DNA from: a virus
Taxonomy: Duplodnaviria > Heunggongvirae > Uroviricota > Caudoviricetes
Reading direction: 5' to 3' (one strand)
Length of the DNA stretch: 48,765 nt
IMG/VR virus record: IMGVR_UViG_2877982868_000002
Shown: positions 47,874 through 48,765 of the stretch, one piece after another
How positions within the stretch are numbered: the stretch's first letter is position 1
Layout of the letters: each line of letters begins with the position of its first letter
Made by a program: the position numbers and the translations under genes
Notes under the pieces: model-generated
What the model was told of the DNA's origin: nothing
The model's database searches: none
Seen by the model: only the letters and a program-made list of their open reading frames with translations

Positions 47874-48074
47874 ATGTATCGAAACATACGGTGCCGACAC
47901 TGCAATAAGCTACTGGCACGGGCCAGTTTCAGTTATCTGGAAGTAAAATGTCCGCGCTGTAAAACCCTCAATCAAATCACATCTCCGAGCGCCACAGAGC
48001 ACCCCACATACACAAGGAAATCCTGTCGTGGGGAACAGAAAGCAAGTCACATCCCGAATCATCAGCACGCCTGA
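47874..48074 (+). CDS. com: Com translational activator of mom (zinc-finger)
   Basis: 66 aa from ATG 47874 with SD ggagg; [11 protein letters not shown]...CPRCKT Cys4 motif as in Mu Com; overlaps mom start. Confidence 0.75.
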
Positions 48075-48765
48075 ACTTATTCGCTATAACGACAATATCG
48101 TTGGTTATGGCTCCCGTGAGTTGCGGGTTGAGACAATAAGTTGCTGGCTGGCCAGACTGGTCATCGTCAATAAACATTACAGCCACCGTTTCGTAAATAA
48201 CTCCTACCTTCATCTGGGCATATTTTCAGAACGGGAACTTGTTGGCGTAATGCAATGGGGTTACGCCCTTAACCCAAACAGTGGTGCACGCGTCGTAACG
48301 GGTACGCAGAACCGAGAATATATGGAGCTTAACCGGCTATGGCTGCATGACTGTATGCCGAGAAACTCCGAATCAAGGGCAATCAGTTACGCGCTCAAGC
48401 TAATCAGGCAGCTTTATCCGCAGGTACAGTGGGTTCAGTCGTTTGCAGATGAGCGTTGTGGCTGTCTTGGTGTCGTGTATCAGGCAAGCAATTTTGATTA
48501 TGTAGGCAGCCATGAATCAATATTCTATGAACTTGATGGCGAGTGGTATCACGAGATTTGCAGGAATGCCATTAAACGAGGCGGACAACGAGGTGAACAT
48601 CTGAGGGCTAATATTGACAGAGCCAGTGTTCATAAGTTCCGACAGTTTCGTTACATCCGGTTTCTGAACAAGAGGGCCAGAAAACGCCTCAACACAAAGC
48701 TATTCAAAGTCCAGCCTTACCCAAAACCACAAACAGTTAAAACTGGTTTGAAAGAGAGTGAATGA
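48028..48765 (+). CDS. mom: Mom DNA-modification protein (adenine N6-carbamoylmethyl modification, anti-restriction)
   Basis: 245 aa; near-colinear similarity pattern to Mu Mom ([78 protein letters not shown]); stop is the last codon of window. Confidence 0.85.

Follow-up and report, generated by a model that had tools for sequence, protein, structure and literature searches.

The window analysed here is a stretch of DNA of 48,765 nucleotides, and its last 892 bases are occupied by two overlapping open reading frames on the + strand, com and mom (Table 1). They lie exactly at the coordinates at which the original prediction had placed them (47874-48765), and the mom stop codon is the final triplet of the window (48765). 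The predicted overlap of com with the start of mom is 47 nt long, and mom is in the +1 frame relative to com; the pair in phage Mu has an equal offset and a 50-nt overlap. The reading frame of mom is closed by a stop upstream, and between this stop and the GTG at 48028 no other start codon occurs, so the GTG is the only candidate.

Table 1 Positions in the window of com and mom, of the putative control elements around them, and of two related prophage genes
Feature	Coordinates	Strand	Description
Mor/C-family transcription activator	20190..20615	+	Pfam Mor 2.8e-32; between gemA-like and lysozyme genes
Gin homologue	43947..44507		75% identical to Mu Gin; adjoins inverted repeats
Dam-site palindrome AATCGATCG-N7-CGATCGATT	47806..47830	.	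Perfect 9-bp inverted repeat; GATC at 47810 and 47823
Shine-Dalgarno of com, AGGAGG	47858..47863	+	Read from sequence; 10 nt 5' of ATG
com	47874..48074	+	ATG to TGA, 66 aa; CCCC zinc ribbon; identical coordinates in PGAP
Putative Com-binding hairpin	47989..48002	+	GCGC-CACAGA-GCAC, carries CC(N3)GAG; one C-A mismatch in the 4-bp stem
Predicted translation-inhibition hairpin	48002..48033	+	Stem of CCCCAC (48002..48007) and GUGGGG (48028..48033), in which the mom GUG is sequestered
mom	48028..48765	+	GTG to TGA, 245 aa; GNAT-fold adenine N6-methylcarbamoyl transferase homologue

The Com and Mom proteins

The product of com matches the Pfam family Zn_ribbon_Com (PF10122; 1.9e-12, 46.9 bits against a cut-off of 22.9) and PHROG 13819, 'gpCom control of modification'. 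On alignment it is 44% identical to Mu Com. Its zinc ligands have the spacing C-x2-C-x16-C-x2-C, and C7, C10, C27 and C30 align with C6, C9, C26 and C29 of Mu Com, which bears out the Cys4 zinc finger of the original prediction. Residues R6, N11, K12 and R29 are also kept; by our own mapping of the model numbering, they align with the basic patch that has been proposed to lie near the zinc site (PMC6483171). Mu Com is known by experiment to be an mRNA-binding zinc finger (PMC6483171). On this basis the protein in the window would be a Com-family zinc ribbon that binds RNA and acts as a translational activator of mom.

Mom matches the Pfam family Mom (PF25680) over the whole of the profile (positions 1-202 of 202; 4e-77, 258.9 bits against a cut-off of 27.1), and PHROG 1384, 'Mom-like DNA modification protein', at 1.4e-83. 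It matches the solved structure of Mu Mom (PDB 8bv8, 'Methylcarbamoylase mom') over residues 5-233 with an E value of 4.5e-124. In the copy of NCBIfam that was searched, no model matched either Com or Mom, although PGAP names both, as 'Com family DNA-binding transcriptional regulator' and 'Mom family adenine methylcarbamoylation protein'.

As had been predicted, the protein is near-colinear with Mu Mom, with 184 of 231 residues identical (79.5%). It is longer than Mu Mom by 2 aa inserted close to the N-terminus and by a tail of 12 aa that follows the conserved PYPK at the C-terminal end; tails after PYPK range from 4 to 17 aa in other Mom orthologues, such as those of D108, pAEv1818 and JD024. 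Mutagenesis of Mu Mom has identified residues that it requires for activity, namely H48 and S114 for acetyl-CoA, Y49, D139 and Y149 for iron, and R101 for the substrate (PMC7261163). All six are identical in the alignment (H50, S116, Y51, D141, Y151 and R103, respectively), so that the loss of catalytic residues which would have spoken against the original prediction is not seen. A GNAT fold with a basic C-terminal extension can be recognised at the sequence level, the basic C-terminal stretch of 23 aa being identical to that of Mu.

Among the proteins of the prophage, Mom is the best conserved relative to Mu: Gin is 75% and the large terminase 73% identical, and most others are 35-60% identical. 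Comparison of the mom gene with that of Mu gives a pN of 0.156 against a pS of 0.78, which is saturated, and this indicates strong purifying selection on mom. A pseudogene or decayed remnant was also considered, and was rejected on account of the intact ORFs, the kept catalytic residues and the purifying selection. The modification made by Mom is now described as N6-methylcarbamoyl-adenine (PMC7261163), and we infer that the allele in the window likewise modifies DNA.

A predicted translational gate at the start of mom

For Mu Com, the target motif has been defined by SELEX and SHAPE as CC(N3)GAG; in its wider form, the target is CC(N)2-3GAG within a short hairpin. The hairpin to which Mu Com binds adjoins a 'translation inhibition structure', and the GUG start codon of mom is found within the stem of the latter (PMC6483171). 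In the window, the motif is present as CCACAGAG at 47992..47999, within a putative Com-binding hairpin, and its position relative to GAGCAYCCCAC is as in Mu. The adjoining hairpin, which is predicted to sequester the mom GUG, has the same architecture as the CCCAC/GUGGG hairpin of Mu, with a calculated RNA fold of -14.3 kcal/mol, and its inner stem would mask part of a Shine-Dalgarno-like AAGGAA (48014..48019). The two inhibitory hairpins differ in their loops, which comprise 20 nt with an inner stem in the window and 11 nt in Mu. Mu also has a second Com motif, CCACGGAG, overlapping the 5' arm of the inhibitory hairpin, which is absent in the window.

Single-sequence fold statistics for the hairpins of the window are not significant (z from -0.9 to +0.2). 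The pairing of its start codon is 1.0 against a mean of 0.83 in shuffled sequences and is not distinguishable from these, 5 of the 60 shuffles being equal to it. An Rfam scan of 46600..48765 gave chance-level matches only. The support for the RNA structure therefore comes from a comparison between loci.

In a survey for Mom, one genome per species was scanned, giving 52 loci. The scan for com covered 50 loci, made up of 45 of these together with the window, Mu, D108, pAEv1818 and JD024. A Com-like ORF with a CxxC...CxxC pattern was found just 5' of mom in 33 of the 50, and usually overlaps the mom start. The RNA comparison was made on 29 com-mom loci from Gamma-, Alpha- and Deltaproteobacteria, using as control the upstream 70 nt after dinucleotide shuffling. 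The start codon is predicted to be paired with upstream sequence with a median probability of 0.98, against 0.48 in the shuffled controls. The pairing partner co-varies with the start codon in these loci, GUG being paired with CAC, AUG with CAU and UUG with CAA, although the assignment of partners is partly circular, since it is derived from the predicted folds. The Com motif is found between -40 and -22 from the mom start in 24 of the 29. The comparison, and in particular the consistency of the start-codon partners, gives good support to a predicted translational gate that is conserved across com-mom loci.

Five loci carry Mom homologues of 62-70% identity without any com. One is in Aeromonas phage pAEv1818 (L007) and the others (L020, L021, L023 and L044) are a Sphingomonas-labelled contig and Serratia contigs. 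The mom gene of pAEv1818 has a lambdoid setting, where it comes directly 3' of a gene for a Q antiterminator and is followed by the lysis genes, and its late expression is presumably brought about by antitermination and not by Com.

A different arrangement is found in a sister prophage, a Mu-like phage nested in a Stx1a phage (LC727895.1; locus L001, 4476..5682). Its com has 96% nucleotide identity to that of the window and is followed by the same GUG hairpin, and then, in the place of mom, by a gene for a cytosine-5 DNA methyltransferase of 350 aa (Pfam DNA_methylase at 2.1e-42; TIGR00675, dcm). Homology with the window ends at about 48041, 4-5 codons past the GUG, and resumes in the right-end GGTATCAA repeats. 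It has the appearance of an exchange of cassettes, with the translational gate in front of them retained. The methyltransferase variant is present in 10 of the 232 E. coli genomes that have this com, and also in Mu-like phages nested in Stx phages.

Replacement of mom behind com, by adenine methyltransferases, has been described for FluMu (hin1523), Pnm1 (nma1821) and phage B3, Mu-like phages in which a Com homologue, together with mRNA control elements, gates translation of a right-end gene whose product modifies DNA and is toxic (PMC3299994). In these three the gated enzyme is a DNA methyltransferase, whereas in the window it is a true Mom. Whether com and the two mRNA hairpins form a portable translational gate, recombined by Sp18-type phages in front of alternative DNA-modification genes, seems to us evenly balanced. 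If so, it would be a new example and not a new principle, since the replacement in FluMu, Pnm1 and B3 is already known.

The control region upstream of com and its candidate activator

The upstream control region of com was taken as 47760..47873. It contains the Dam-site palindrome listed in Table 1, the two GATC sites of which (47810 and 47823) are 13 bp apart and align with sites 2 and 3 of the mom control region of Mu and D108. GATC-N9-GATC is found 5' of com in Mu, D108 and five other enterobacterial loci, with a sixth having a differently spaced pair, and the enterobacterial pair is usually accompanied by a third GATC about 18 bp upstream. The pair was not found in the Pseudomonas or Desulfovibrio loci compared. 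In Mu, Dam methylation of the GATC sites counteracts repression by OxyR, and the promoter Pmom is a poor one, which depends on an activator (PMC3378877).

A sigma-70 promoter scan of 46600..48765 found no promoter in the com upstream region, and the stretch from 47830 to 47873 shows neither a T6 run nor any sequence recognisable as a promoter. The site of the Mu C protein is TTAT-N6-ATAA, and in Mu a T-run lies between poor -35 and -10 elements, in agreement with the Mu sequence. This C box is absent from the whole window. The third GATC site of Mu is also missing, leaving two sites rather than three, and the last GATC is 51 nt from the com ATG, compared with 78 nt in Mu, a distance that excludes the geometry of the Mu promoter. 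A similarly short spacing between GATC and com is seen in an Edwardsiella locus (L009).

The prophage has a single gene of the Mor/C family (20190..20615), whereas Mu has both Mor and C. Its product is 39% identical to Mu C and 26% identical to Mu Mor, and both Mu proteins match this one ORF. We consider it a candidate for, and probably, the activator of the com-mom promoter. It was also observed, for the region 19611..20686, that the separate mor and the middle-operon genes E18-E20 of Mu have no counterpart in the prophage. The single Mor/C gene suggests a transcription cascade of two stages and not three. The promoter of the Sp18-type phages, with two Dam sites, no C box and a single activator, has diverged from that of Mu, and may therefore belong to a simplified two-stage cascade.

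The GATC pair is thus kept, but the third site, the spacing, the C box, the T-run and the promoter differ from those of Mu, and the logic of transcription is probably similar in kind but not in detail. Transcription of com-mom is probably late, activator-dependent and Dam-sensitive as in Mu, with details that are not identical.

Some further sequence elements were noted. The sequence CCGCAAARCCYGCC occurs exactly at 20620..20633, 5' of the lysozyme/lysis gene, and at 28512..28525, 5' of the homologue of gene I (head protease), and may be a binding site of the single Mor/C-family activator; Plys and PI of Mu have similar CCCGCA elements. As an activator site for com it was rejected, there being no copy 5' of com and only weak enrichment (6 matches where 2.4 are expected). 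The GATC palindrome lies between the arms of an imperfect inverted repeat of some 31 nt (47742..47772, TAATCACCTCCCTGAATCATTGTTGATGACTTT, and 47838..47867, AAAGGCATCAACAACAAAGCAGGAGGTTATG), one of which includes the com Shine-Dalgarno; the repeat might bind a regulator, reflect divergent promoters or form a structure in the leader. A conserved AGCCTAYCA-like element is located 10-35 nt 5' of com in six distant loci from Edwardsiella, Neptunomonas, Desulfovibrio and Pseudomonas (L009, L016, L017, L026, L008 and L051), and may act in the com-mom family as part of a promoter or as an activator site. The window shows a weak resemblance to it (AGGCATCAA, 47840..47848).

Prophage setting and probable function of the operon

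The Mu-like prophage starts at 9672 (TGTAACCAGG...), and positions 1..9671 are host sequence belonging to the adhesin gene siiEA. In an E. coli genome with identical com-mom, the right end of the prophage lies 128 bp 3' of the mom stop, by way of GGTATCAA repeats. The window therefore lacks only the right-end repeats, which are likely to be transposase-binding sites. The operon had been described in the original prediction as complete. This holds for the two ORFs, both of which are intact; the control region (47760..47873) lies outside the coordinates that were given for the operon, and the 128 bp of the right end lie outside the window. The other components named in that prediction are both present: Gam is encoded at 15340..15870 and is 57% identical to Mu Gam, and the invertible fibre segment is marked by 182-nt inverted repeats (42500..42681 and 43703..43884) beside the Gin homologue. 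Every element of the prediction that could be checked on the sequence was thus borne out.

The giant adhesin gene siiEA is the insertion site of the prophage (window 1..9684). The 3227-aa ORF is open at the start of the window, enters the left end of the prophage at 9672 and stops four codons further on, which means that the adhesin is truncated in this strain. The insertion site differs among genomes, being siiEA here and the inside of a lambdoid prophage in NZ_CP027380.

The locus resembles those of Mu, D108 and SfMu in many respects. These are a right end of the transposable phage on which gin, com and mom follow one another in this order; the overlap in the +1 frame, the GUG start of mom and the CCCC zinc ribbon of Com; CC(N3)GAG followed by GAGCAYCCCAC, and the CCCAC/GUGGG hairpin; and the upstream GATC-N9-GATC. 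Mom is 77-80% identical to the Mom proteins of these phages, with all the validated residues kept. Besides the differences in the control region described above, the window differs in having a 3.3-kb cassette (esterase, DUF1378 and DUF826) between gin and com.

The segment 47400..48765 (1366 bases), which includes com-mom, is found at 100% identity in at least 20 listed E. coli (STEC) genomes, eight of these being O157, and at 99% identity or more in 133 records; across more than 200 genomes, com, mom and the control region show little or no difference. Sp18, the Mu-like prophage of O157:H7 Sakai, has homologues of Mom and its regulators at the corresponding position (PMC3299994), and is reported as predicted to be intact and as having its DNA packaged (PMC2669165). 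From the com-mom matches in O157 and STEC genomes, the prophage of the window would be of Sp18 type. The operon is thus already known and is not novel: the com-mom pair has been annotated in hundreds of genomes, and its Sp18 homologues are in the literature. A search of the literature found no published experiments on this com-mom allele.

On the basis of these observations, we consider it highly likely that the locus is orthologous to the com-mom operon of Mu and functional, and that it forms the right end of an E. coli O157 prophage which is Mu-like and of Sp18 type. The genes and their homology, the conserved active-site residues, the conserved RNA motif and hairpin, and the Dam sites are seen directly in the sequence; where the promoter lies, its dependence on an activator, the binding of OxyR, the binding of Com to RNA and the chemical modification are features that we infer. 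In late lytic growth, a weak, activator-dependent promoter in 47760..47873 would be switched on, probably by the single Mor/C-family protein, with two GATC sites homologous to the Mu cluster, at which Dam methylation prevents repression by OxyR. From the bicistronic mRNA com would be translated freely, while the GUG of mom and part of its Shine-Dalgarno would be locked in the hairpin at 48002..48033. Binding of Com to the CC(N3)GAG hairpin at 47989..48002 would then open the inhibitory hairpin and allow synthesis of Mom. Mom, with a GNAT fold and using acetyl-CoA and iron, would convert a fraction of the adenines in replicated phage DNA to N6-methylcarbamoyl-adenine, and the modified DNA, once packaged, would resist many restriction enzymes in the next host.

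The operon might instead be transcriptionally cryptic or differently wired, so that despite intact ORFs little or no Mom is made, or control is exerted by something other than the C, OxyR and Dam of Mu. We regard this as unlikely. The Mu-type C box, one Dam site and some 27 nt of the promoter region have been lost, leaving two GATC sites instead of three, a shorter distance from GATC to ATG, and neither a consensus promoter nor TTAT-N6-ATAA. The one Mor/C-family gene, at 39% identity to Mu C, is the only one present, and CCGCAAARCCYGCC, which is common to two putative late promoters, is absent 5' of com. The failure of a consensus scan is, however, to be expected, given that Mu Pmom is itself poor and activator-dependent (PMC3378877), and a diverged activator would be expected to have a diverged site. 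The spacing in the Edwardsiella locus is similarly short, and the near-identity of the control region and genes in more than 200 genomes, together with the strong purifying selection on mom, likewise speaks against this reading.

It is very unlikely that the enzyme catalyses a reaction other than that of Mu Mom, such as plain acetylation, or acts on another base or in another sequence context. The activity of this allele is predicted from homology, the protein has its C-terminal extension of 12 aa, and some of the 20% of residues that differ lie in the basic C-terminal region, for which a contact with DNA has been suggested (PMC7261163). Against this, the six residues needed to bind acetyl-CoA and iron and to handle the substrate are all identical, the length of the tail after PYPK varies among the clear Mom orthologues of D108, pAEv1818 and JD024, and 80% identity is well inside the range in which function is normally retained. 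Still less probable is that Com is a DNA-binding transcription regulator and not an RNA-binding translational activator. The product name given by PGAP is the one point in its favour; it is countered by the experimental demonstration of mRNA binding by Mu Com (PMC6483171), and by the RNA motif and start-codon hairpin, which are kept here and across the 29 loci. A functional Mu-type operon remains the preferred reading.

The main value of these results is a correct annotation, and they have little significance beyond this. They confirm that the Mu-like prophage which is common among Shiga-toxin-producing E. coli has a DNA-modification module directed against restriction. The module is apparently functional, and may aid transfer of the phage between strains with differing restriction systems. 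The by-products of the comparison, namely the Com motif and start-codon hairpin kept across three proteobacterial classes, the GATC-N9-GATC pair conserved in enterobacterial loci and the swap of mom for dcm, should be modestly useful to those who study Com and Mom or use Com as an RNA-binding tool.

The region between gin and com (44607..47256) holds three genes without a counterpart in Mu, of which the first encodes 679 aa with DUF6645 and a domain of the sialate O-acetylesterase (SASA) type, the second DUF1378 and the third DUF826. We take this arrangement to resemble the nanS-p cassette of lambdoid and Stx phages, and the resemblance would suggest lambdoid cargo captured by a Mu-like phage. 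Between this cassette and com, PGAP annotates a 154-aa ORF on the - strand (47295..47759), which has no family match and no Shine-Dalgarno and is shortened to 56 aa in the sister phage L001. Within it, on the + strand, there is a promoter-like site (47497..47526) and a strong terminator-like hairpin with a 13-bp stem (47573..47602). Perhaps this ORF is an artefact of annotation, and the region may instead encode a small RNA or simply hold the terminator of the upstream cassette.
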